From a virus (lineage: Duplodnaviria > Caudoviricetes), in IMG/VR virus record IMGVR_UViG_3300042922_000770, positions 1 through 24,017 of that record: DNA of 24,017 bases; one strand, 5' to 3'. Made by a program: the position numbers and the translations under genes. The notes below the pieces were generated by a model, which saw nothing but the letters and a program-made list of their open reading frames with translations, searched no databases and was not told the DNA's origin. This document shows, piece by piece, positions 1,121 to 24,017 of this stretch (position 1 is its first letter; each line of letters begins with the position of its first letter).

Positions 1121-1467
1121 TGGCACTGGAAACATTCACCTGGTCACCACAAAACGGTCCTACGGCAGACATCGAAAACCGGAATACGACTGCGCAATAT
1201 GGCGATGGCTACTCGCAGGTTGTGGGGGACGGGATTAATACGGAATCGCAGTCGTGGCCGCTGACATTTACTGGCTACAAATCGGAAATCCTGCCAATTC
1301 TGGCGTTTCTCCGGTCGCATGCGGAACGTCGAGCGTTCAAATGGATAAATCCGCTGGGTGAACTGGGGCTGTATCACGGGAAGTCGATAAAACCCACCAT
1401 TATTGATTTTGAGCGGATGTCTGTTACGGTCACACTCGTCACGGCCTACCGTGCGGAACCAATTTAA
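1120..1467 (+). CDS. Phage minor tail protein M (lambda gpM-like)
   Basis: 115 aa, METFTW..., AQYGDGYSQVVGDGIN motif, TAATG overlap with the tape measure stop. Confidence 0.92.
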   Translation: MALETFTWSPQNGPTADIENRNTTAQYGDGYSQVVGDGINTESQSWPLTFTGYKSEILPILAFLRSHAERRAFKWINPLGELGLYHGKSIKPTIIDFERMSVTVTLVTAYRAEPI

Positions 1468-1476
1468 GAGGGAAGA

Positions 1477-1824
1477 ATGAAAAAAATTACCGGCGCGCTA
1501 ATGGTGGCGGCCCTTACCGTAACCAGCGTGGCAGCACAGGCACGCGAACTCTCCCCTAAAGAGAAAGGAATTATTGAAGATGTCACTAAGCAGCAGCTAA
1601 AAGATCCGGAGAGCGCGAGATTTTTTTGGCAAGATTACAAGGGTGGGGAAATTTACTGCGCTCACGTTAATGCAAAGAACTCGTATGGAGGTTATGCGGG
1701 AAAGTCACTGCTTATCGCGGGTGTTAAAACTAGCAGCAACGGTGAAATTATATCCGCAGAAGTCACGACCCATAACGACAGTTTGATGAATCCTATCTGC
1801 ACAAAACGCGGTTACAAAGTTTAA
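1477..1824 (+). CDS. Hypothetical secreted/periplasmic protein inserted in the tail operon (moron-like)
   Basis: GAGGG RBS, Sec signal peptide (MKKITGALMVAALTVTSVAAQA), LKDPESARF and YCAHVNAKNSYGGYAG motifs, two Cys, more AT-rich than flanks, followed by a terminator. Confidence 0.85.
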   Translation: MKKITGALMVAALTVTSVAAQARELSPKEKGIIEDVTKQQLKDPESARFFWQDYKGGEIYCAHVNAKNSYGGYAGKSLLIAGVKTSSNGEIISAEVTTHNDSLMNPICTKRGYKV

Positions 1825-10169: not shown

Positions 10170-10607
10170 ATGCAGTTACAACGCCTTATTTTTCCGGACG
10201 TTCCGGTACAGATCCCCATTTACGGGGATCTCATTTCCGCAGGCTTCCCCAGTCCTGCGGCTGACTATATCGAGAGCGGCATCGATCTGGTGTCGCATCT
10301 TATTCCGCACCCGTCCTCAACCTACACGCTGCGCGTATCCGGCGATTCCATGATCGGCGCTGGCATCCTTGATGGCTCACTTCTTCTTGTCGATTTCAGC
10401 ATTCATCCCCAGCATAACGATATTGTCGTAGCCAACCTCGGAGGTGAGTTCACCGTCAAAAGACTGGTGACACACCCGGTGGCACAGCTGCTGGCAGAGA
10501 ACCCGGCCTACCCTGCGATCCCTATTTATGACGCCGACGAACTTGAAATCGTCGGCGTTGTCATTTCCGTCATCAGCACGATGCACCGCAATGTTCGCCC
10601 TCGTTGA
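10170..10607 (+). CDS. umuD: DNA polymerase V accessory subunit UmuD (S24 peptidase)
   Basis: AGFPSPAADY cleavage motif, VSGDSM catalytic Ser, EFTVKRL catalytic Lys; AAGGAGG RBS. Confidence 0.95.
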   Translation: MQLQRLIFPDVPVQIPIYGDLISAGFPSPAADYIESGIDLVSHLIPHPSSTYTLRVSGDSMIGAGILDGSLLLVDFSIHPQHNDIVVANLGGEFTVKRLVTHPVAQLLAENPAYPAIPIYDADELEIVGVVISVISTMHRNVRPR

Positions 10608-11859
10608 TATGAACTCGTTTTACGCGAGTTGCGAAACCGCATTCCGGCCCGATATTGCCGGGCGGCCCATAATCGTTTTAAGCAACAATGATGGCTGCGT
10701 TATCGCCCGATCAGCTGAGGCCAAAAAGCTCGGCATCAAGATGGGCACGCCGTGGTTCCAGTTGCGGGAGACGCCTTTCCAGCAGCCGCTGCTGGCCTTC
10801 TCCAGTAATTACGAGCTGTACGGTGATATGTCGCAGCGTGTGATGACCACGCTTGAGGAAATGTGCCCGCGCGTGGAAGTGTACTCAATCGACGAGGCCT
10901 TTTGTGACCTGACCGGCGTGCGCAATTGCCGTGATCTGGACGATTTCGGGCGGGAAATCCGCGACACGGTGTGGCGTAATACGCGACTGCGTTGCGGGGT
11001 GGGTATTGCGCAAACCAAGACTCTTGCAAAACTGGCAAACAGAGCTGCGAAAGAGTATCCGCAGACCGGGGGCGTGGTCGATTTATCGAACGTCGAGCGC
11101 CAGCGCCGTTTAATGGCGCTGATGCCGGTGGAGGAAGTGTGGGGCGTCGGCAGGCGCATTGCCAAAAAGCTGGCGGCCATGGGGATCACCACAGCGCTCC
11201 AGCTGGCGGACACGGATATTCGGTTTATCAGAAAACATTTCAATGTTGTGCTGGAGCGTACGGTGCGGGAGCTGCGCGGCGAGTCCTGTCTGGAGCTGGA
11301 AGAATTCGCGCCAGCGAAGCAGGAAATTGTCTGCAGCCGGTCGTTTGGCGAGCGCATCACCGACCATGAGGAAATGCGTCAGGCGATCTGCTCTTATGCT
11401 GCCCGGGCGGCGGAAAAGCTGCGCAGTGAACGCCAGTACTGCCGGTACATTTCGGTCTTTGTGAAAACGTCGCCCTTTGCGCTGAATGAGCCCTACTACG
11501 GCAATAACGTCGGCACGAAACTGCTTACCCCGACGCAGGACACCCGCGACATTATCGCGGCGGCCATGCGCTGTCTGGACGCGATATGGCGCGATGGCCA
11601 CCGTTATCAGAAAGCCGGGATCATGCTGGGCGACTTTTTCAGCCAGGGCGTTGCCCAGCTCAACCTGTTCGATGACAACGCCCCACGCGCCGACAGCGAC
11701 GCGCTGATGACGTTACTCGACAAACTCAACAAACAAGGGCGGGGCACGCTGTACTTCGCCGGGCAGGGCGTACAGCAGGCATGGCAGATGAAGCGGCAGA
11801 TGCTCTCGCCATGTTACACAACGCGCCTCTCAGACATTCCTGTAGCCAGGGCGAATTAG
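10591..11859 (+). CDS. umuC: Y-family DNA polymerase V subunit UmuC
   Basis: True start MFALVDMNSFYASCE at 10591 (422 aa); LSNNDGCVIARS, YSIDEAF, W.MKR..LSP.YTT motifs. Confidence 0.96.
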   Translation: MFALVDMNSFYASCETAFRPDIAGRPIIVLSNNDGCVIARSAEAKKLGIKMGTPWFQLRETPFQQPLLAFSSNYELYGDMSQRVMTTLEEMCPRVEVYSIDEAFCDLTGVRNCRDLDDFGREIRDTVWRNTRLRCGVGIAQTKTLAKLANRAAKEYPQTGGVVDLSNVERQRRLMALMPVEEVWGVGRRIAKKLAAMGITTALQLADTDIRFIRKHFNVVLERTVRELRGESCLELEEFAPAKQEIVCSRSFGERITDHEEMRQAICSYAARAAEKLRSERQYCRYISVFVKTSPFALNEPYYGNNVGTKLLTPTQDTRDIIAAAMRCLDAIWRDGHRYQKAGIMLGDFFSQGVAQLNLFDDNAPRADSDALMTLLDKLNKQGRGTLYFAGQGVQQAWQMKRQMLSPCYTTRLSDIPVARAN

Positions 11860-11979: not shown

Positions 11980-13683
11980 CTATATAGCGAGGTCATTGAC
12001 CTTAACGACATAATAGTCTCTGGCTTCTGGAATCAGTCTGTCGACCTTAGCCCCAAATTTTCCAGAGCTGACTTCGTCATAGTCTTGCCCATCCACCTGA
12101 ATGCTTTCGATATTCAGAAGGTGCCAGTGATTTTCTTTATCTTGAATGGCTAGTTTATCTGATTTTGCAACGGTGAAATTTATTTCTTCAGGAATGATCA
12201 GGGAATAGACCGTATTTCCTTTGTAACAGTGATTAAAATTCAACTTATAAATGCTTTCTCTGAAGTTAATTAAACCTTCTTGTTTAAAAGCTTCACGTGC
12301 AGCGGATTTTGTTATAATGCCTGTTTCTATCATGTGATAAATATTAAAAAGTTCATAAGTAAATGTCATGCCTCGGTTAGCCATTTCCGCATCTTCTATT
12401 TGAGTCTCATTAAATGGGATATTTATCCTTTCCATGGGAGCCCTGTAACGTTGATGATTGACTACATAGACAGCCTTGTAGGTATTTCCCGGATTAGACC
12501 TTCTTCTACGCAATGCTATTTTTGAAATTTGGGCACATAGAGCATCTGTTGAGGTTCCTCCAATGCCTTTTACTTCAAGTAAGAAATGAATGCCGTCATA
12601 TTGAAAGTTGAGATCTTCTTCGAATATTTCACCTGCATCCACATCCACGTTTTCATCAGGATCAATGACATTGGTAAACCCAATATATTCAAGAAACCAT
12701 TTTACTGAGAGAACAAGATCATCCCCAGTTTCTTTAAGCATATTTCTTAGCTTAACATTTTTATCATCATTATGAATCATTTCATATTCATTGTTTAGTT
12801 GAGAAATAGTTAGTTCATGGCGCTTTATTTCTTCAGCAATTTCAATAGATTTATTTTTTTCTTCAAGGGAAATATATGAAAAATCTTTAGTCCATGAGAA
12901 GTTATCGTTATCTGGGAAAAGATCCTGAAATTCAGGGAGTTCAGGTAAAACCTTTTCAAATAACTCAGATATAAATGAATCTTTATCAGCTAAGTCTGGG
13001 AAAACCATTATAGTTTTGTTACCTATTTTCCTAATGATGGAAACAGGTTCATTAGAGCCATTTACAGCTAAAACGACATCGTTAGTATATATATTAAATG
13101 CAACATTATAATGTGATTCAGGTAGAAATTTTATCAAGCATTTCTTAATTTCCTGATTGTCATGGCTTTGGTTAATTGAAATTCTATTGCCTGTTCTTTT
13201 GACGATATTGAAATAAGAATGAGGAAGGTAAAGAGAGTCAGATGTCAATTGGTAACCATCAGAGCCCTCGACCTCTATATTATAGGTTTGTTTGTCATAA
13301 TAGCTAGCAAAAAAAATGATAAGTTGTTTTTTATTTGTACTAAATGAATTCTTAATTGCATATGAAACATCAAGCGGAAATAAGTAGGCGACAGATGGTA
13401 TATTCCTATAGTAGACAGAGCGCCCATTATATGTATTTGATACAAAACCTTCACGGGGCGATGTATCTATAATTATTATTTCCGCTTCATGGCAGTTTCG
13501 TGGAACCTCGTTATTATATGGTATCGACATGCCGCCCCTTGAGCTACTGTCGTACTCTTTATAGCCATTCATTTTATGAGCGGAAGAATTAAAGCCTTTA
13601 GATTTTAAAAGCGCATTCATTGCCTCATCAGTATTTAATAAATATATAAGAGGCTGGGAGTTATCAATCATCTTCACATCCAC
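11980..13683 (-). CDS. AT-rich hypothetical protein with restriction-endonuclease-like PD-(D/E)xK domain (candidate defence protein)
   Basis: 567-aa ORF, much more AT-rich than flanks; coiled coil followed by FLEYIGF...EEDL-x9-LLEVKG...Q motif. Start could be GTG 13683 or ATG 13671. Confidence 0.7.
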   Translation of the reverse strand: MDVKMIDNSQPLIYLLNTDEAMNALLKSKGFNSSAHKMNGYKEYDSSSRGGMSIPYNNEVPRNCHEAEIIIIDTSPREGFVSNTYNGRSVYYRNIPSVAYLFPLDVSYAIKNSFSTNKKQLIIFFASYYDKQTYNIEVEGSDGYQLTSDSLYLPHSYFNIVKRTGNRISINQSHDNQEIKKCLIKFLPESHYNVAFNIYTNDVVLAVNGSNEPVSIIRKIGNKTIMVFPDLADKDSFISELFEKVLPELPEFQDLFPDNDNFSWTKDFSYISLEEKNKSIEIAEEIKRHELTISQLNNEYEMIHNDDKNVKLRNMLKETGDDLVLSVKWFLEYIGFTNVIDPDENVDVDAGEIFEEDLNFQYDGIHFLLEVKGIGGTSTDALCAQISKIALRRRRSNPGNTYKAVYVVNHQRYRAPMERINIPFNETQIEDAEMANRGMTFTYELFNIYHMIETGIITKSAAREAFKQEGLINFRESIYKLNFNHCYKGNTVYSLIIPEEINFTVAKSDKLAIQDKENHWHLLNIESIQVDGQDYDEVSSGKFGAKVDRLIPEARDYYVVKVNDLAI

Positions 13684-13950: not shown

Positions 13951-15129
13951 TTACAGGACATAGCGCCTTGTGATTTCAGCGGCGATCTTCTCTGCCCGGG
14001 CAGGTTCGTCAGCCTCCTGTTTTACCACGGTACGGGCAAACGGGATCATCGACTGCAGCTCGTTGGGTGAGATGCCATATTTGATGCCAGCAGCGGCTGT
14101 GCGGATGCAGGTCACAACGGCGTCCAGCTCGAGCATGGATTCGTCCACGACTTCATGCACGGCTTTTTGCTGTTTGGCCTGGTGCTGTTCCAGCATCTGC
14201 TCGATGCGTTTAACCAGTTCTGCCGGTACGTTGTTGAGCTGGAACGTCACGGCATCACCCTTATAGCGCGCCTTCATGCCGGTGCCGAACAGACGTTCAC
14301 GTGCGACGGGTTTAGCCGGTGCGCCGGTCACTTTGTGCAGTTGCTCCAGCAGATCATCAGTATCGAAAGATTCACCGCTGTTCTTGCGGCGCAGCAGCGA
14401 CTGCGCAAACGCGAACATGGCGTCTTCGTTGGCGGCATAGATTTTGGCCAGTGACTCGCCGGCGCGCGCGCTCAGCTCGTTCGGGTTGTTGAACAGGCTG
14501 ATGATTTCGAGCGGCAGTTTTGCAGTGTTCACGCAGCGCATAATGACCTTGCGCTCGATCCCCTCTGCCTCAGACAACTTGCTGACATTCCCGCCAAACT
14601 CAGTTTCCAGCCGGCGCGCGTAGCGCTTACCGCGTTCATACGCGCTGGTCGGGCGGTAGTCGTTGCCGATTTGCGACAGCCAGCGCATCTGCTCATCGTC
14701 CAGCTCGCCAACCAGTACCCGGTATTCGCTGCTGGTTACAATAGCCGTCTGCCGGCGACGGCTGCCGTCGGCCACTTCGATGATGCCATTCGTTTTACGG
14801 GCAAACGCCGGATTCTGCTGACCGTTCGCCAGAAACGAGGGGATCAGGTCATCGAGAGACGCCTGCGTCAGCAGCGCCTGGTCACGTTCGTTCCCTGACC
14901 ACACCATCGTCGCCTTCTTCACCATGTGCGCCGGCACGGTTTCCAGCACAAATTTCACGTCACGGCCACAAACCGGCAGCGTGATGGTGTTGCCGGTCAT
15001 GCCGTTCATGAGGCGATTTAAATCGCTGACCACGGGCGAGGTGAATTTTGGCATTCCCGGTGCCGATGATTTCGTTTCACCGGTATTTTTGGGGAGGGTC
15101 GGTGCATTTTTCATCGTGGTGCGTTTCAT
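13951..15129 (-). CDS. sopB: Plasmid partition protein SopB (ParB family)
   Basis: ITLPVCGRDVKF, VWSGNERDQ, IEVADGSRRR, GNDYRPTSAYERG and NELSAR motifs as in F SopB; overlaps the sopA stop. Confidence 0.95.
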   Translation of the reverse strand: MKRTTMKNAPTLPKNTGETKSSAPGMPKFTSPVVSDLNRLMNGMTGNTITLPVCGRDVKFVLETVPAHMVKKATMVWSGNERDQALLTQASLDDLIPSFLANGQQNPAFARKTNGIIEVADGSRRRQTAIVTSSEYRVLVGELDDEQMRWLSQIGNDYRPTSAYERGKRYARRLETEFGGNVSKLSEAEGIERKVIMRCVNTAKLPLEIISLFNNPNELSARAGESLAKIYAANEDAMFAFAQSLLRRKNSGESFDTDDLLEQLHKVTGAPAKPVARERLFGTGMKARYKGDAVTFQLNNVPAELVKRIEQMLEQHQAKQQKAVHEVVDESMLELDAVVTCIRTAAAGIKYGISPNELQSMIPFARTVVKQEADEPARAEKIAAEITRRYVL

Positions 15130-16304
15130 TTGGCCTCCTCCCAGCGCGGTTTAATCAGTTTGTCGAAAATCTCTTTGCACACCGGCTCCCAGATGGCCAG
15201 CGCGTTACGCCATGCGCTGGTGGATGAGCGCTGGGCGGTTGCCTGTTCAAAAATGGTACGCATGCGGATCTGGCCCTTGCCGACTTCATCCGTCACGCGC
15301 ACCACTTCACGCAGCACCAGGCTACCCCATGCATCGCGAATCTGTTCTTCCATCCATGGTGACTGGCTGCCGGTTGCGTTGGAATATTTGGTCAGCAGGA
15401 TACGCACGATGGGCTCGAATCCCTCCACACCGAGGTCGACGGTTGAAAGCATGTCGCGCAGCATGGTGAAGAACTGCAGCGTGGAGGTGTAGTCGTACAG
15501 CTCTGCCGGCGTCGGGACAACAATTACATCAGCGGCGCACACCACATTGATGGTGCCGATGCCGAGGTTTGGTGCGCTGTCGATGACGATCACGTCGTAG
15601 TTATCCCACACGCTCTCGATAGCGGCGCGCAGCATCATGTGCGGCGGCTGTGGCAGCTGGCCAGCGTGGTGCAACTGCATCAGTTCGGTTTCGATACGGT
15701 GCAGAGACAGGCAGGACGGGATGATTTCAAGATTTGGCCAGCATGTCGGTTTGATGGCGTATTCCGCGCTATCACGCTCACCCAGGTAGAACGGCAGGAG
15801 TGTGTCGTCTGCATGGATGTTCAGGTCCGGGACAAAACCGTGGTACATCGATGCGGTTGCCTGCGGATCGTTACCCTCAACGAGCAGCACGCGCTGTCCC
15901 TGGAGGGCCAGCCATTGCGCGAGGTGTACAGAACTGGAGGTTTTGTACGCGCCGCCCTTGTGCGCTGCGACGGCCAGCACGACCGGGTCAGAACCTTCCG
16001 GACGACGGCGAACCGTGCCGAACACTTCACGCATATAGTTGATCTGCTGAATGGTGTATCCGATGCGCTGCTCTACACGGCCACGACGCTCCATATCCGG
16101 CACCGGCAGACGCTGAGATTTTTCAGCATCGCGGATAGCCTGTGGCGTCACGCCAACCAGTTCAGCGGCTTCTGTGATACCCCAGCGGCGGGTAATCTGC
16201 CGCGCCTCCGGGCTGTCATCGCCGAACTGCGCAATAGCGATTGCCCGCGTCATGTCCTGCCCACGTTCGATACACTGATCCAACGTTTCAATAAGTTTCA
16301 TCAT
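15126..16304 (-). CDS. sopA: Plasmid partition ATPase SopA (ParA type Ia)
   Basis: AIAIAQF.DDSPEAR.ITRRW.I.EAA HTH, Walker A HKGGAYKT, EGNDPQ, IDSAPNLG, LIKPRWE C-terminus. Confidence 0.96.
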   Translation of the reverse strand: MMKLIETLDQCIERGQDMTRAIAIAQFGDDSPEARQITRRWGITEAAELVGVTPQAIRDAEKSQRLPVPDMERRGRVEQRIGYTIQQINYMREVFGTVRRRPEGSDPVVLAVAAHKGGAYKTSSSVHLAQWLALQGQRVLLVEGNDPQATASMYHGFVPDLNIHADDTLLPFYLGERDSAEYAIKPTCWPNLEIIPSCLSLHRIETELMQLHHAGQLPQPPHMMLRAAIESVWDNYDVIVIDSAPNLGIGTINVVCAADVIVVPTPAELYDYTSTLQFFTMLRDMLSTVDLGVEGFEPIVRILLTKYSNATGSQSPWMEEQIRDAWGSLVLREVVRVTDEVGKGQIRMRTIFEQATAQRSSTSAWRNALAIWEPVCKEIFDKLIKPRWEEAK

Positions 16305-16321
16305 CGCATTAGTTCCGTTAA

Positions 16322-16399
16322 CTTTGCCTGTAAAGATTCAATCATGGTATTTGACGCAAAGCAAGGTGAAATACGCAAACTTTCGAGTTAGACGCAAAG
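16322..16399 (-). promoter_or_regulatory. sopA promoter/operator region with CTTTGC boxes
   Basis: CTTTGC at 16322 and inverse copies GCAAAG/GCAAAC/GCAAAG at 16356, 16375, 16394 (19-bp period); CTTTGC hexamers are the SopA autorepression operator in F. Confidence 0.65.
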
Positions 16400-16460
16400 T
16401 TAAATAAAACTAGTAAAGTTAAAATGTCGGCTTTATGATCTGACCACATACAAAAATTTA

Positions 16461-16490
16461 TTGACGTGTCGTGTCGATGCGAGCTAACGT
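16461..16490 (+). promoter_or_regulatory. Putative sigma70 promoter of the icd/anti-immunity operon
   Basis: TTGACG-N18-TAACGT with an A/T-rich upstream tract, just 5' of the first antisense target box. Confidence 0.45.
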
Positions 16491-16552
16491 TATGTCGCTG
16501 CAGCAAAATCTGCAGCCGGGCGTAGGAACCCGGATGACTAAGTGACGCATAG

Positions 16553-16574
16553 ACACGCGTTGGCGTGTTTTTTT
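16553..16574 (+). terminator. Attenuator-like terminator in the icd leader
   Basis: ACACGC-GTTG-GCGTGT followed by a T-run, between the upstream target boxes and the C4-like RNA. Confidence 0.55.
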
Positions 16575-16603
16575 GTATGCGTAGCCTGCACACACCGAAA
16601 TTA

Positions 16604-16681
16604 TGGTGGCTCAGGCGGGGCAGCCTTCGGGCTGGCCGGTACTCACTTAGGCCGGTATTCCTACCCCCGTCTGGGCTACCA
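16604..16681 (+). ncRNA. C4/CI/CA-type antisense immunity RNA (P1 c4, P4 CI, N15 CA family)
   Basis: Closing stem TGGTGGCTCAGGCGGGG/CCCCGTCTGGGCTACCA, CAGCC-TTCG-GGCTG hairpin. Loops TCACTTAG (16643-50) and TTCCTAC (16658-64) are complementary to CTAAGTG(A) and GTAGGAA boxes upstream (16522, 16538) and downstream (16693, 16721). Confidence 0.88.
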
Positions 16682-16739
16682 CCCTACAGAGCGTAGGAAC
16701 TCTGGTGGTAGCGATGCTCACTAAGTGGAGTCACGCACC

Positions 16740-16913
16740 ATGTTCAAATTCAAGTTCGCGGCTATCTGCCGTACCGATCGCAAAAATCATATCCATATTT
16801 TCAGTGCCGTTGCTTATAGCGAGCGCGATGCCCGTCGCCAGCTTGCAGGCCGTGCGCGCAAATTTATCCTGTTCTTTCAGGCTCGCCTGCCAGTCGCAGG
16901 AGGTGCCGCGTGA
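16740..16913 (+). CDS. icd: Host cell division inhibitor Icd/Kil-like protein
   Basis: ATG 16740 after GGAG; 57 aa, F.FAA..R..., A.SER.ARR.L....L.F.ARLP pattern; position directly after a C4-type RNA. Confidence 0.8.
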   Translation: MFKFKFAAICRTDRKNHIHIFSAVAYSERDARRQLAGRARKFILFFQARLPVAGGAA

Positions 16914-17137
16914 ACCAGCTCAAACTGAACGAACACGGCCTGTCGGAATCACTGGAATCGGTACTGGCGCAGATTAACGCGCTGGCCAACGTCGCGCACT
17001 TCACTATCAGCAATGCCAGCGCCTCGATTTATCTGGAGGACGCCGCGCAGCTGCTTATCACAATCAAGAATCTGGCCGCTGAGGCCGAACAGTACCGGAA
17101 CGAGTGGGAAGATCTGATACCACGGTCGCGTCGCTGA
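16910..17137 (+). CDS. Small helical hypothetical protein in the icd operon
   Basis: GTGA overlap with the icd stop, AGGAGG RBS, 75 aa amphipathic helices. Confidence 0.75.
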   Translation: MNQLKLNEHGLSESLESVLAQINALANVAHFTISNASASIYLEDAAQLLITIKNLAAEAEQYRNEWEDLIPRSRR

Positions 17138-18318
17138 TGCTGTACGCCATCCGCGTCCGCCTGTATCCGAACGCCGCGCAGCGGGAGTTTTTTGCTAAGA
17201 CGTTTGGCTGCTGCCGGTGGGTTTATAACGACGCGCTGGCGTACTGCCAGCGCCAGTACGAGGCGGGTGCGCCACGCCCGTCTGCGTACGATCTGATGAA
17301 GCGACTAACGCAGTTGAAGGCTGAATACCCCTGGCTTGCCGATGCGGACAGCCAGGCGCTGAAACAGGCCTGCGCGGATCTGGATGGCGCGTATAAGCAT
17401 TTTTTCCGTCGTGTCAAAAATGGCGAGACGCCGGGCTTTCCCCGGTTTAAATCGAAGCACCGGGGCGATGCCACCTACAACGCCACGGCTGCCACCAGTA
17501 TTGCGCTTGAGCCCCGCCAGCTGAAATTGCCGAAAGCGGGATGGGTACGCTGCCGGGGTGGCAGGGAATGGGAAGGTAAAATCAAACGGGCGACGGTACG
17601 GCAGACGCCGACCGGAAAATACTATGCCACCGTGCTGATTGATGACGGGCGCGACCTGCCGGTGCAGCCAACAACGAACCTGACGCCACTGGGTATCGAT
17701 GTCGGCTGTAAAACCGAAGGGTTCACGCACCAGTTTGTGGCACTGTCGACCGGAGAAATCATCACTGCTCCGGCGGAATATAAACGGCAGATGAAGCGGC
17801 TGCGCCGGGCATCCCGCCGGCTGGCCAGAAAACAGAAGGGCAGCGCCAATCGGTTAAAACAAAAACGCCGCGTCGCGCAGCTGCACGAGCGAATCAGTGC
17901 AGTTCGCCGGGATTTCCTGCACAAACTGACTCACCGCCTGACCTGCGAGAACCAAGCGCTGGCGATTGAGGATTTGAATGTGAAGGGGATGATGGCTAAG
18001 CCGGCACCGAAGCCCGACCCGGAACGCCCGGGCACGTTTCTGCCGAACGGCGCGATTCGTAAGCGCGGGCTTTCCCGGTCGCTGGCCAGCGCCAGCCTGG
18101 GCGAGTTTTTCCGCCAGCTGGAATATAAAAGTGCCTGGCGGGGTGTGGCATTGCTGAAAGTCAGCCGCTGGGAGCCGTCCAGCAAGCGCTGCAGCGGCTG
18201 CGGTGAAATTAACGATGCACTGACACTGGCCGACCGCCGGTGGCAGTGTCCGGCGTGCGGGTCAGAACTGCACCGCGACATTAACGCCGCCATGAATATC
18301 GCCGCGCGAGCGGTGTAA
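17137..18318 (+). CDS. tnpB: RNA-guided endonuclease TnpB family protein, RuvC triad intact, no tnpA
   Basis: ATG 17137 in a TGATG overlap; 393 aa; RLYPN..Q....FG..RWVYN..L HTH, GFPRFKSK, RuvC-I LGIDVG, RuvC-II AIEDLNV, Zn finger CSGC/CPAC, RuvC-III HRDINAA. Confidence 0.95.
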   Translation: MLYAIRVRLYPNAAQREFFAKTFGCCRWVYNDALAYCQRQYEAGAPRPSAYDLMKRLTQLKAEYPWLADADSQALKQACADLDGAYKHFFRRVKNGETPGFPRFKSKHRGDATYNATAATSIALEPRQLKLPKAGWVRCRGGREWEGKIKRATVRQTPTGKYYATVLIDDGRDLPVQPTTNLTPLGIDVGCKTEGFTHQFVALSTGEIITAPAEYKRQMKRLRRASRRLARKQKGSANRLKQKRRVAQLHERISAVRRDFLHKLTHRLTCENQALAIEDLNVKGMMAKPAPKPDPERPGTFLPNGAIRKRGLSRSLASASLGEFFRQLEYKSAWRGVALLKVSRWEPSSKRCSGCGEINDALTLADRRWQCPACGSELHRDINAAMNIAARAV

Positions 18319-18326
18319 CGAAAAAA

Positions 18327-18425
18327 TAGGGCGCGGCCCGCCCGAATCTACGCCTCCGGACATGGCCAGTGCGCCGTGGTAGAAAGAGGAAATTCCCGTA
18401 AATATTTGGTGGGTTTTGACGCTGG
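18327..18425 (+). ncRNA. Putative TnpB omega-RNA scaffold (boundaries uncertain)
   Basis: Directly 3' of tnpB; hairpins GGGCG-CGGCC-CGCCC and CATGGC-CAGTGC-GCCGTG enclosed by CCTC/GAGG; layout resembles tnpB 3' RNAs as recalled, not computed. Confidence 0.6.
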
Positions 18426-18462
18426 CTATAACCAGCTGATTAACCAGCCGAATCCCGCAAGA

Positions 18463-18552
18463 GGTTAGCCTACGCGGGCGGGGATAGGTCGAGGGACCAA
18501 TGAAGATAATTACCGGCGCGCTAGGTTAATCCACGCGGGCGGGGGTAGGTTG
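18463..18552 (+). CRISPR. CRISPR-like mini-array: two ~29-nt repeats with one 32-nt spacer
   Basis: R1 GGTTAGCCTACGCGGGCGGGGATAGGTCG (18463-91), R2 GGTTAATCCACGCGGGCGGGGGTAGGTTG (18524-52), 24/29 identical, 61-nt period; spacer 18492-18523 matches 1469-1500 at 28/32. Confidence 0.7.
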
Positions 18553-18574
18553 CAATTCAGTTGATGAAAGGTAC

Positions 18575-18602
18575 AAAAAAACCGCCATTAGGCGGTTTTT
18601 TT
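18575..18602. terminator. Bidirectional intrinsic terminator
   Basis: A7-CCGCC-ATTA-GGCGG-T7; closes the tnpB/array transcript and the convergent sRNA. Confidence 0.85.
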
Positions 18603-18695
18603 GGCAGTAGAGAATTGGCGTTCTTAACTGCAAGTCCACTTAAGCAAAAGATAGTTTGGCATCCATCAAATGTTTCGTGAGACTGTCGATTGGTC
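18575..18695 (-). ncRNA. Putative type I antitoxin sRNA (~120 nt)
   Basis: Minus-strand promoter TTGACG(18730-25)-N17-GACAAT(18707-02); first 19 nt are complementary to 19219-19237; internal hairpin 18604-31; ends at the bidirectional terminator. Confidence 0.6.
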
Positions 18696-19237
18696 AATTC
18701 AATTGTCAATCACTCTGACGAGTACGTCAACTATGAATTTAATAGTTGCCACTTCACATGCCGATCAGATAGCACTACAACGTGAAAAAAAGTTGTACTG
18801 TTCCGCTGGTATAGTTTTATAATTTTCAAAGACCAGGACCAATCCTATAAATGACATTCTGGTCAGTCCTCTTGGGGCGATTTAAGATCGATTTTTAAGC
18901 ATTAGTGAAAAAAAACAGTCAATCAGGGAGAAAGCATCAGCTCAAAAAGCTGGCACTGACTCTATATCTAGCTATGATTTCATAGCTTAACATCACTAAA
19001 ATGAGGAGGAGAAACATGATTATGAACAATTGTTCTAGTTTGTTTAGGCCCTTCTCTGGAAGGGCTTAAAACACTTTTAATAGTGAAGCTATTTTGGCCG
19101 TAACCGGCCGTTAATGGTATCGAATACTTAAGTCGCACGCCTGTGGCAAGGCATCTGTGGGTCCGAAGATTCGGAAGTTCATCCGGATCTCCGGATTGTG
19201 GCTTTTGCCCCAGAGGTTGTGAGACTGTCGATTGGTC
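18677..19237 (+). repeat. Perfect 19-bp direct repeat GTGAGACTGTCGATTGGTC at 18677-18695 and 19219-19237
   Basis: Read directly from the sequence. Confidence 0.95.
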
Positions 19238-19316
19238 CCTTCGGTCACTCATGAGTGATTTGGTTGCCCTGATGCTACCTCTTGAGATGCAGCCTCCTCT
19301 ATTAGAGGAGAAAAGC

Positions 19317-20088: not shown

Positions 20089-20271
20089 CTTAAAAATCCT
20101 TATTGTGATTTATTGGGCACATTCTTATGGATTTGGCGCATGAATAAAAGTGCACGCCGATTTTTTTGAAGTGCTGATTGGTTTTGCGGGCTCACGTAGA
20201 ACAGTCAAAACATTACGGCAGATGGCCAGAACGCGGTAGCTGAACGGGGAGTGCACAAGTTAATCATCAAG

Positions 20272-20575: not shown

Positions 20576-20899
20576 ATGATGAGAAACACCGATGTGACAG
20601 GTGGTTCCGCAAACTTAGCTTTGGCCGGGGCCAAAGATACACGTGTCGAGCTGCGAACCAGTGTCGATATAAAAGAGAAGTTGCGTGCAGCAGCCTCTCT
20701 GGCTGGGGTGGACTTGAGTGCTTTTATTCTGATGGCTGCGACACGAGCTGCACAACAGACGCTGGATGAACAGCGAATGCGTGTGTTTAGCGAGAAAGAG
20801 TGGGATCACATGAACGCGCTTATTAATTCACCCCGTCAGGCTGGCAATAAACTGCGCACGCTTATGACGGGAGAAGTTAAATATGAGCGAGATTTTTGA
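20576..20899 (+). CDS. DUF1778 (TacA/AtaR/KacA-like) RHH antitoxin
   Basis: KDTRVELRTS...KE.L..AA.L.G..LS.FI..AA...A...L pattern, P....L..LM tail; overlaps a GNAT gene. Confidence 0.9.
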   Translation: MMRNTDVTGGSANLALAGAKDTRVELRTSVDIKEKLRAAASLAGVDLSAFILMAATRAAQQTLDEQRMRVFSEKEWDHMNALINSPRQAGNKLRTLMTGEVKYERDF

Positions 20900-21431
20900 T
20901 GTAAAGTTAGTGAAAGGTGATTCCGATGTAAAACTTAACGGAATCAAAAAGTTCGATTGTGGCGACAAAGTTCTGAACGATTTTTTACAGCAACTTAAGC
21001 GCCAGTGCAGCCGTGACAACATCCAGGCATTATTGCTTGTTAATGGTGATGGTACTGTCATTGGGTTTGTTACGGCAGCTTTACAGCAGGTTGGGAAGGA
21101 TGTCATTCCGGAAGGGATTTATCCATACGCACTTCCCCCTGTATTTACAGCTATGAAGGTTCCTATGATTGCTATCGACAAGCAATATCAAAGGCAAGGA
21201 TGGGGACTACAGCTGATGCGCGCTATTTTGGATTACTGTCTTGAAAGCGCAGCATTGGTAAAAGGTATCAAGGGCGTGATCCTTGACGCCAAGGTTGAGG
21301 CTCGCAGCTTCTATGAGGACTTCGATTTTGAAGCGATCAGTGAGGAGGTCAGCCCTAACAATACCATCCCAATGTTCATAACGATGGACACCTTACGGGA
21401 TAGTAAAAGTAAGCTGGATAAAAGCGCGTAG
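20883..21431 (+). CDS. GNAT acetyltransferase toxin (TacT/AtaT/KacT-like)
   Basis: FDCG...LNDFL, acetyl-CoA loop IAIDKQYQRQGWG..L, LDA...A..FYE.F.F motifs. Confidence 0.9.
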   Translation: MSEIFDVKLVKGDSDVKLNGIKKFDCGDKVLNDFLQQLKRQCSRDNIQALLLVNGDGTVIGFVTAALQQVGKDVIPEGIYPYALPPVFTAMKVPMIAIDKQYQRQGWGLQLMRAILDYCLESAALVKGIKGVILDAKVEARSFYEDFDFEAISEEVSPNNTIPMFITMDTLRDSKSKLDKSA

Positions 21432-23032: not shown

Positions 23033-23584
23033 ATGCGAAACATAGTAAATGGAAAAAAACCTGACAATAGCGCTATGGCAAAGAAGATGTTAATTATGCT
23101 GGTTATCACTATCATGCCATTGCCAATTGCTTTCGCTATCTTCTTAAATGATCCTCAATCTCAAATGCTCAGTTCCATATCTGCAGCAACAAGTGACTTT
23201 CCTGTACTCTGGTCCGTTAATAATCCCTTACTTAGTTCAGTGATGAATGCATGGTGCAAGACAGCGCCTTTTTGGGGATTGATTTTATTTATAATGTCAT
23301 TTAATCACATTGAAATAAATGGCAGGCAATCAGCGAGAGAAATGGTCAAAGGACTTGTATTATTCTCAGTGTTGTACTTTCCAATAATGTATATGTTGTT
23401 GCTTCACTCTACGGAGATAACTGAGTCCGGTAAGATTTATCAGGTAATGTCACAAAATGACTTTTTGCTGACTCTGCTTTTCATGAGTATTTATGCGGTG
23501 TGTTATATATCTACTGCTTATTACCTGCTCATAGTTGCTGCAACATGTAAGGCCTTAAGTAAAAAACGCAAGTTGTCATTTTAA
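23033..23584 (+). CDS. Colicin A/B/N-type immunity protein (inner membrane)
   Basis: 183 aa, four hydrophobic segments, P..WS.NNPLLS..M..WCKTAP motif, convergent with a pore-forming colicin gene. Confidence 0.88.
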   Translation: MRNIVNGKKPDNSAMAKKMLIMLVITIMPLPIAFAIFLNDPQSQMLSSISAATSDFPVLWSVNNPLLSSVMNAWCKTAPFWGLILFIMSFNHIEINGRQSAREMVKGLVLFSVLYFPIMYMLLLHSTEITESGKIYQVMSQNDFLLTLLFMSIYAVCYISTAYYLLIVAATCKALSKKRKLSF

Positions 23585-23602
23585 TTTCCAGATTATAAAA
23601 AT

Positions 23603-23632
23603 AAAAGGCAGACGGTTTCCCGTCTGCCTTTT
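23603..23632. terminator. Bidirectional terminator between immunity and toxin genes
   Basis: AAAAGGCAGACGG-TTTC-CCGTCTGCCTTTT. Confidence 0.85.
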
Positions 23633-23634
23633 AA

Positions 23635-24017
23635 TTAACGCGCCGGACGAATCACTTCATTGTTGATTTTGTCGACCAGCTTATCATCAATAAGTGATGC
23701 AGCCAGGCTGATCGCGATAACGCCGACGATCATGACTGCGGTTACCGGCAGGCCAGCTGTAGACGCAAGGAAAGTAGCCAGCGATGCAAGAATGCTCAGC
23801 GCAAAGCCTGTTGCAATACCGCTTAACACCCACGACTCTACTTCAAGCAGTAACGGCTTCCAGTTTCCGGTATTGATGCCTTCGATAGACTTCTGTCGGG
23901 CTTTCTCAACTTTCATGATTATATCCGCAGCAGAAAAAGCCTTGCCCAGATAAGCGAACTTATAGGCCATATCGGTAGCATTAAGATGGTTCCATGCATT
24001 GATAATCGCGGCTTTGT
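23635..24017 (-). CDS. Colicin A-like pore-forming bacteriocin, C-terminal part (5' end outside window)
   Basis: Frame open to the window edge (KAAIINAWNHLNATDMA...); MKVEK.R.KSIEG..TGNW.PL.LEVESWVLSGIA, hydrophobic hairpin and IDDK..D..NNE.IRPA end closely match the colicin A channel domain. Confidence 0.93.
   Translation of the reverse strand, partial: KAAIINAWNHLNATDMAYKFAYLGKAFSAADIIMKVEKARQKSIEGINTGNWKPLLLEVESWVLSGIATGFALSILASLATFLASTAGLPVTAVMIVGVIAISLAASLIDDKLVDKINNEVIRPAR

Follow-up and report, generated by a model that had tools for sequence, protein, structure and literature searches.

A tnpB gene in a C4-controlled operon of an N15-like phage-plasmid, with a type I-E-like leader and mini-array inside its predicted omegaRNA

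The viral record IMGVR_UViG_3300042922_000770 (Caudoviricetes), analysed over its whole length of 24,017 bases and referred to here as the window, is 52% complete and represents about half of an N15/PY54-like linear phage-plasmid. It contains an operon in which a C4 antisense RNA, icd and an antirepressor gene precede a gene for the nuclease TnpB, followed by a predicted TnpB guide RNA (omegaRNA) whose 3′ end runs into a CRISPR mini-array (Table 1). A first-pass annotation of this DNA had ended at 18318; the operon that it described is confirmed, and the omegaRNA, leader and mini-array at 18325-18552 had been missed. What is observed comprises the operon layout, an intact nuclease, leader motifs at type I-E spacing, a 29+32 geometry and turnover of the spacers, together with phage targets that have G-ending 5′ flanks, covariation between an omegaRNA loop and the repeat tail, and diverged copies of the targets in the carriers' own genomes. 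These observations most likely describe a homing TnpB that has been made re-programmable for competition between phages. Related loci and contigs are designated L and sequencing runs X.

Table 1 Features of the operon, the guide locus and their surroundings in the window
Feature	Position	Strand	Evidence
Putative operon promoter, TTGACG hexamer at 16461-16466	16461-16490	+	TTGAC hexamer at the same position in most carriers
C4 target pair 1 (16522-16528 and 16538-16545), isrK-type leader RNA	16484-16573	+	Rfam c4-a1b1, isrK; complementarity to C4
Attenuating terminator	16551-16570	+	Terminator scan
C4/CA antisense RNA	16599-16686	+	Rfam RF01695, 79.8 bits against a cut-off of 45
C4 target pair 2 (16693-16699 and 16721-16727), immediately before icd	16693-16727	+	Complementary to both C4 loops
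icd, cell-division-inhibitor-like, 57 aa	16740-16913	+	NF033153 above cut-off; 60% identity to N15 gp32 over 53 aa
antA-like antirepressor, 75 aa	16910-17137	+	phrog_10889 'anti-repressor', E 2.5e-29; 47% identity to N15 gp31 over 59 aa
tnpB, 393 aa, antB position	17137-18318	+	PF12323, PF01385, PF07282; NF040570 above cut-off
omegaRNA scaffold core; first hairpin 18329-18343, loop 18334-18338 predicted for pseudoknot	18325-18395	+	Conserved non-coding block, 9 aligned loci
Type I-E-like leader inside the omegaRNA; upstream motif 18406-18415, integration host factor (IHF) consensus 18429-18441, end AGA	18400-18462	+	Predicted RNA hairpin
Repeat 1, 29 nt, also predicted omegaRNA 3′ end; pseudoknot strand 18487-18491	18463-18491	+	Repeat family D4
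Spacer, 32 nt, predicted TnpB guide	18492-18523	+	
Repeat 2, 29 nt, differing from repeat 1 at five positions; period 61	18524-18552	+	
Operon-closing terminator-like inverted repeat I18, perfect 13 nt then T run	18574-18603	+	
Own-genome protospacer homologue, AAG and 32 nt (1469-1500), start of ORF 1477-1824	1466-1500	+	28/32
sopB	13951-15129	-	PF18090/PF13614 for the sopB and sopA pair; phrog_1146/phrog_164
sopA	15126-16304	-	PF18090/PF13614 for the sopB and sopA pair; phrog_1146/phrog_164

The genes of the operon are chained by a GTGA overlap at 16910-16913, between icd and the 75-aa open reading frame (ORF), and by a TGATG overlap at 17135-17139, between this ORF and tnpB; the C4 RNA, which the first-pass annotation had included in the chain, does not overlap icd. 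The Rfam families c4-a1b1 (16484-16536), isrK (16497-16573) and C4 (16599-16686) all exceed their gathering scores, and the two loops of C4 are the complement of two target pairs, the first located in the leader and the second ahead of icd. All 11 C4-bearing loci examined have one or more loop/target pairs of this kind. The sequence of the pair differs among phages, with both sides covarying, and therefore fits a working switch with several specificities. A TTGAC hexamer occupies the promoter position in most carriers, in N15 and in PY54 and is absent in L038; a consensus scan for promoters did not pick up the one proposed at 16461. Operons of the N15/P1 type are silent in lysogens and are read upon infection, before C4 RNA accumulates.

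In N15 the immA operon consists of icd, antA and antB, the function of antB being unknown (PMC4488713, PMC10612081). As is described for immA of N15 and phiKO2 and for immI of P1, the window brings icd, antA and a C4/CA RNA, the last with its two target pairs, together in one operon (PMC4488713); unlike immA of N15 and phiKO2, it has tnpB and a guide locus in place of antB. By its sequence, the 75-aa ORF is an AntA homologue, and tnpB stands where N15 has antB, with this antirepressor homologue retained. The antirepressor slot in which TnpB had been proposed to sit is thus the position of antB, whose N15 product (gp30) is placed in Ant families of PHROGs. Because antA is retained and only antB replaced, TnpB would add to anti-immunity, and the idea that it substitutes for it is not supported. 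The sopA-C4-icd arrangement of the window is that of PY54, unlike immA of N15, and other carriers have the operon elsewhere. The complete N15-like phage-plasmid L209 (NZ_CP117191) has no C4/icd locus at all; immA is therefore dispensable in the N15-like group.

TnpB of the window retains the RuvC residues D188, E278 and D381 and four zinc-finger cysteines, as had been read from the sequence at the outset, and the D-E-D triad is kept in all eight tnpB genes checked. The protein shares with TldR the status of a phage-borne, domesticated TnpB, and it is rightly kept apart from TldR, which is described as a nuclease-dead repressor of host genes, by its intact active site and by targets that are phage genes. 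The nearest natural solved structure is that of ISDra2 TnpB (E 7e-68), and LaTranC aligns only at the C-terminus (E 1e-18). The score for NF038281 (341.7) lies under the cut-off of 425, as do those for c2c8 (117.9, cut-off 350) and Cas12f2 (37.2, cut-off 450) under theirs; PADLOC matches to Cas12u4/Cas12f are family-level and carry no cut-off. A proline-rich insertion of about 20 residues past the RuvC-II glutamate (residues ~287-306; 17995-18060) is found clade-wide and is missing from ISDra2 TnpB. The suggested likeness of tnpB to the phage backbone was borne out, with a GC content of 0.61 and a third-position value (GC3) of 0.71 against 0.68-0.72 in tail L, tail J, umuC, sopA and sopB. The ratio of non-synonymous to synonymous substitution (dN/dS), predicted to lie below 1, was 0.07-0.17 in all 28 pairs among the eight genes, and thus tnpB is, by this measure, under purifying selection, in array carriers as well.

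A search at E <=1e-100 returned 71 proteins, a clade with 56-94% identity whose named members come from Salmonella, Citrobacter, Xenorhabdus and Aeromonas. The clade was found in 8 of 72,556 plasmid records and 1 of 50,697 phage records, with one copy of the cassette per record. C4 lies upstream of tnpB in 10 of the 11 carrier loci scanned, in relatives down to 54% identity; together with the purifying selection, this agrees with the view of tnpB as a long-term resident of C4-controlled operons. The cassette lies beside sopA in seven loci (the window, L001, L003, L004, L036, L037 and L210). In L002, L005 and L234 it takes the N15 position ahead of the protelomerase gene, in L038 it is between terS and terL, and in L126 it is at a methyltransferase position. 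Alleles without the cassette, which had been thought absent, exist: L209 lacks the whole cassette, the flanks of L213 match those of L038 at 99.6-100%, and the flanks of N15 match those of L234 at 87-93%. Because empty alleles exist and the cassette occupies at least four positions in N15-like genomes, the cassette is mobile, as judged from these alignments, though not by clean IS1341-type insertion, since its junctions are replacements of 31-390 bp of the empty allele.

These data also bear on the explanation that tnpB is a recent passenger of the IS1341 type, or an antirepressor substitute with no guide role against other phages. The existence of empty alleles, a tnpB pseudogene in the close relative L003 and the Ant-family protein gp30 in the same slot of N15 would suit it. 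The left end of an insertion sequence (IS) has no room, as the antA stop overlaps the tnpB start, and the Y1 transposase of tnpA (PF01797) is absent from the window record and from five of five carrier records, most of these records being incomplete; both absences had been noted from the sequence alone. The replacement-type junctions argue against it as well, and so do the retention of antA and a C4 linkage that reaches relatives of 54-58% identity. A sample of 401 bacterial genomes, with no positive control among them, yielded no clade member at E 1e-110, and none of the genome-contig matches listed had more than 40% full-length identity to TnpB. We regard this explanation as very unlikely and as already largely refuted.

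Downstream of tnpB, the stem of the first scaffold hairpin shows compensatory changes among carriers. The last five bases of the repeat are complementary to the loop of this hairpin, with four or five of five pairs formed in 10 of 11 units, and the loop/tail pairs show double-sided changes in L234 and L039. Because the 3′ end of the repeat pairs with the omegaRNA loop, with compensatory changes, the guide appears to be tied to TnpB. In ISDra2 the pseudoknot is built from the bases directly before the guide (PMC10097598), and since the loop/tail pairing mirrors this pseudoknot, repeat 1 is the predicted omegaRNA 3′ end and the first spacer the predicted guide. The window thus resembles ISDra2 of the IS200/IS605 family in protein size, D-E-D triad, zinc finger and a downstream scaffold with a guide-adjacent pseudoknot, and single-guide members of the clade share with IS200/IS605 elements a right flank that equals the guide. 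Unlike ISDra2, it lacks tnpA and a left end, holds leader, repeat and array inside the 3′ end of the scaffold and is under phage antisense control. Rfam had no family for the omegaRNA or the repeat, its 22 weak matches all lying far from the cut-offs. At 20193-20254, 1.6 kb further downstream, there is a second omega-like fragment, degenerate in sequence, which in L003 (7560-7720) and several runs continues into a second leader-like stretch.

The segment between scaffold core and repeat 1 has the character of a CRISPR leader. The type I-E system of Escherichia coli is described as having a 29-bp repeat, 32-bp spacers and an AAG motif whose G becomes the last base of the repeat, and a leader to which IHF binds between -9 and -35, with a further element upstream, between -50 and -55 (PMC10011333). 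The K-12 array itself has a 29-nt repeat and a period of 61. A 10-mer of the window's leader, which occurs only once in the window, is identical to one in the K-12 leader (offset -57 against -56); both leaders end in AGA, and the exact IHF consensus of the window lies at -34. The core of the upstream motif, at -55 in K-12, is found at -53 to -56 in the window, L001, L002, L003, L004, L036, L037 and both units of L234. At the level of sequence, therefore, the window has the array geometry, the leader motif and the AAG flank of type I-E. The leader folds as a self-contained hairpin in four of five leader-bearing units (z -2.4 to -3.4; -2.4 in the window) and not in K-12, which hints at an additional constraint acting on the RNA. 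The match to IHF is weak in Salmonella-type carriers, and the K-12 leader too matches only with mismatches. Cas1 was not found in five of five carrier records, and host Cas1-Cas2 is therefore the presumed writer of the spacers.

The arrays are short and variable. L001, L002, L003 and L004 hold one spacer, L036 and L037 hold two, and none is held in common. Among eight sequencing runs compared with the window, X2 and X3 carry its spacer (X3 in part), X12 departs exactly at 18492, X4, X6, X8 and X15 differ inside the spacer, and X5 has a new 32-nt unit between near-identical repeats. Downstream of the cassette, a 24-nt direct repeat (18677-18700 and 19219-19242, 92% identical) is possibly partition-site-like.

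Twelve spacers or units were looked up, ten from arrays and two from the degenerate units of L005, and nine matched phage DNA over at least 28 of 32 positions or with one gap. Their 5′ flanks were AAG in six cases and GAG, ATG and AAA in one each; against an AAG background of about 1.2%, six of eight (the AAA copy of L004 excluded) corresponds to a binomial probability of 8e-11. The spacer of L002 matches protelomerase genes of related phage-plasmids (32/32, AAG), those of L036 match two tape-measure sites behind AAG (one 32/32, the second spacer with one gap), that of L001 matches a tail terminator (31/32, AAG, with AAT in one target allele), and that of X5 matches a tail-region gene of the window's closest relative (AAG). 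Two spacers of L037 match integrated proviruses without protelomerase in viral contigs, behind GAG and ATG, and the L004 spacer matches its own genome only (28/32, AAA). Carriers target one another, as L001 and CP054718 hold perfect sites for spacers of other carriers, and the own-genome copies in the window, L002, L004 and L038 are mismatched or lack the motif. The window spacer differs from its own-genome homologue at spacer positions 6, 7, 14 and 16, while all 300 shuffled spacers had at least 10 mismatches. The variable tail-region gene at 1477-1824 (phrog_2320, unknown function) is matched by two independent spacers, those of the window and of X5. Searches against plasmids gave no match for the window spacer and no target for the L037 spacers; the L003 spacer matched only itself or weakly. 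Several candidates were set aside: a 19-nt exact match of the window spacer in the viral contig L215 that diverges at once and was taken to be chance, an 18-nt match of the L126 guide in L227 that was treated likewise, and weak plasmid matches at E >0.9 (Vibrio, Burkholderia, Streptomyces, Pseudomonas and others).

The single-guide members aim at empty sites. In L038, whose own terL start is recoded, the guide agrees at 17/17 positions with empty alleles where terL begins, behind GAG and TAG. L234 has two guides that match N15, one immediately after the antB stop (19/20) and the other at the right flank (28/32), with TAG before each target. Because these single guides sit behind GAG and TAG, we infer a TnpB motif NAG, which would cover AAG and GAG and is short in comparison with TTGAT of ISDra2.

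We consider it probable that a C4-controlled icd-antA-tnpB operon is served by host type I-E Cas1-Cas2 and IHF, which would write spacers into the guide RNA of TnpB, and that TnpB would cut rival phages at NAG. On infection, the operon would be transcribed ahead of the build-up of C4 RNA, and it would be silenced in lysogens. TnpB, which is able to process its own mRNA (PMC10278001), would excise the omegaRNA from it. With repeat 1 as the predicted 3′ terminus of the scaffold, each integration at the leader junction (18462/18463) would swap the guide with no need of an array-processing enzyme, and older spacers would be used only if the RNA were split, as in TranC. The newest spacer would guide TnpB to rival phage DNA beside NAG; cleavage would destroy a resident or co-infecting rival, and recombination may copy the cassette into the rival, as in intronless homing. 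The ancestor would have been a free-standing homing nuclease whose NAG motif chanced to suit the AAG of type I-E, and tnpB would stand in place of antB because homing would put it there. With more reserve, we lean towards a fuller version, in which a single-guide RNA has turned adaptive: with the leader and repeat of type I-E inside the omegaRNA, each host Cas1-Cas2 integration would reprogramme TnpB in the absence of array processing, and one clade would display the whole passage that starts with a homing nuclease, goes on to capture of a leader and arrives at a mini-array, a passage gated by NAG/AAG compatibility and fired by the C4 switch on infection to displace resident prophages.

Several observations weigh against this proposal. 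One target flank, the ATG of L037, falls outside NAG, three of the 12 spacers or units (L003 and two in L005) had no match in the databases searched, and the BLAST queries for L036 and L002 included the final G of the repeat, a slight bias to G-ending flanks. The pseudoknot pairing of L126 has one internal mismatch, and the whole 167-nt RNA is no stabler than shuffles in a pseudoknot-free fold (z -0.97). The exact IHF consensus is present in only three of ten units (the window, L003 and L131), the others being weak at most, and the leader of L131 has no hairpin fold (z +0.3). The two repeats of the window differ at 5 of 29 positions, which is not expected from fresh integration, and the window spacer is therefore not one. 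A type I-E system in the host is assumed, and L003 keeps its array beside a frameshifted tnpB.

This last observation also favours the main rival, in which the mini-array serves the type I-E Cascade-Cas3 of the host, like known viral mini-arrays, and TnpB is either a remnant or a homing gene next to it. The type I-E geometry, leader and 5′ flanks suit such an effector, and the set AAG, GAG and ATG suits type I-E interference more than it does a strict NAG. An 8-nt 3′ tail follows the hairpin of the Salmonella repeat, as in a Cas6e substrate, and the spacers match over all 32 nt, twice the length of the 16-nt ISDra2 guide (PMC10097598). Set against this, the repeats of known mini-arrays are described as identical to those of the host (PMC11656645), whereas here identity to K-12, which may not model the true host, is 18/29 in the window and 14-18/29 among carriers, with differences in the last bases and the 5′ handle. 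The repeat hairpin is also weaker (about -7 against -15 kcal/mol in K-12), the altered 3′ end pairs and covaries with the omegaRNA loop, the leader is embedded in the scaffold, and tnpB is under purifying selection in array carriers. Host Cascade as the effector is thus unlikely.

The same carriers allow a purely selfish reading to be weighed, namely that the cassette is an intronless homing element and nothing else, with guides changed by recombination or template capture in place of Cas1-Cas2 and with no gain to the phage. Single-guide members that aim at their own empty site, the four or more positions of the cassette and the degenerate repeats are in keeping with it. So is the mosaic formed by the window and its closest relative L003, which are identical over 14751-16750, including sopA, and share only 91.5% in tnpB. 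The array spacers, in contrast, match genes far from the cassette and integrated prophages without protelomerase, and the fixed length of 32 nt, G-ending flanks, motif at -53 to -56 and degenerate trailer repeat obey the rules of type I-E integration. We hold this reading to be quite unlikely. In the leaderless L005, two short omegaRNA copies lie upstream of tnpB (the regions concerned being L005 3776-3930 and 5183-5402), and three degenerate units at a spacing of about 61 nt, for which targets were not found, lie downstream. A quick, midpoint-drawn tree places L005 as the first enterobacterial branch, followed by the leader-bearing, single-guide L234, with the array carriers in one group with L038 and the leaderless L126. 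Because this tree is unrooted and a quick version, the order of events is only suggestive.

The element is assigned to the N15/PY54-like phage-plasmids because it has the partition genes sopA and sopB, and Pfam and PHROG profiles identified in addition lambda-type tail genes and umuD/umuC. No telomere palindrome with arms of at least 8 bases was found in the window, which covers only about half a genome. The umuD-umuC pair (10170-11859) is complete, whereas the annotation of the Salmonella relatives shows no more than a short piece of polymerase V there. Between umuC and sopB, a 567-aa ORF of low GC content (0.35; 11980-13683) is possibly defence cargo; it gave no match in Pfam, PHROG, NCBIfam or PADLOC. 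The regions 20576-21431 and 23033-23970 carry cargo for bacterial competition on the phage-plasmid: a TacA/GNAT toxin-antitoxin pair, a colicin immunity gene and, where the contig stops, the last part of a pore-forming colicin-like gene.

Among known systems, TranC and V-U loci likewise lack cas genes and have an array downstream of a nuclease the size of TnpB (bioRxiv 10.64898/2026.03.27.714800; PMC10691335). One of them, CauTranC9, is described as phage-borne, with 38-bp repeats and phage targets (bioRxiv 10.64898/2026.03.27.714800), and 40 V-U branches of TnpB-like proteins with arrays are reported (PMC10691335). Unlike these, with repeats of 32-38 bp and a separate tracrRNA (bioRxiv 10.64898/2026.03.27.714800; PMC10691335), the locus described here has 29-nt repeats at type I-E spacing, contiguous with the scaffold via the leader, in arrays of one or two spacers. 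Viral CRISPR mini-arrays also hold one or two spacers against related viruses and depend on host enzymes (PMC11656645); unlike them, the phage supplies its own predicted effector, and its repeats are not identical to those of a host. SegF-type free-standing homing endonucleases similarly cut the allele of a related phage and spare their own diverged copy, with spread by recombination possible (PMC13565253); TnpB differs from these in being RNA-guided and apparently re-targetable. In the literature covered, which left most subscription papers and the clade tables for TranC and V-U outside the search, no description was found of a TnpB array in N15-like phages or of a type I-E leader within an omegaRNA, and the clade may already be listed as a TranC or V-U candidate.

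For the origin of type V arrays from TnpB guides, both duplication of an omegaRNA segment and capture of an existing array have been considered as options (PMC10691335). Members with a single guide, with a leader and with an array appear to coexist in the clade, and because these three states occur in relatives of N15, a phage grown on laboratory E. coli, the transition from TnpB to array would be directly testable. The 393-aa nuclease has a predicted short motif, NAG, and its guide may be rewritable in vivo. Our results suggest that TnpB is used offensively, and timed to infection, when phage-plasmids of the Enterobacterales compete with one another; if the proposed mechanism is true, the locus would stand as a living intermediate, part-way from the guides of transposons to CRISPR.

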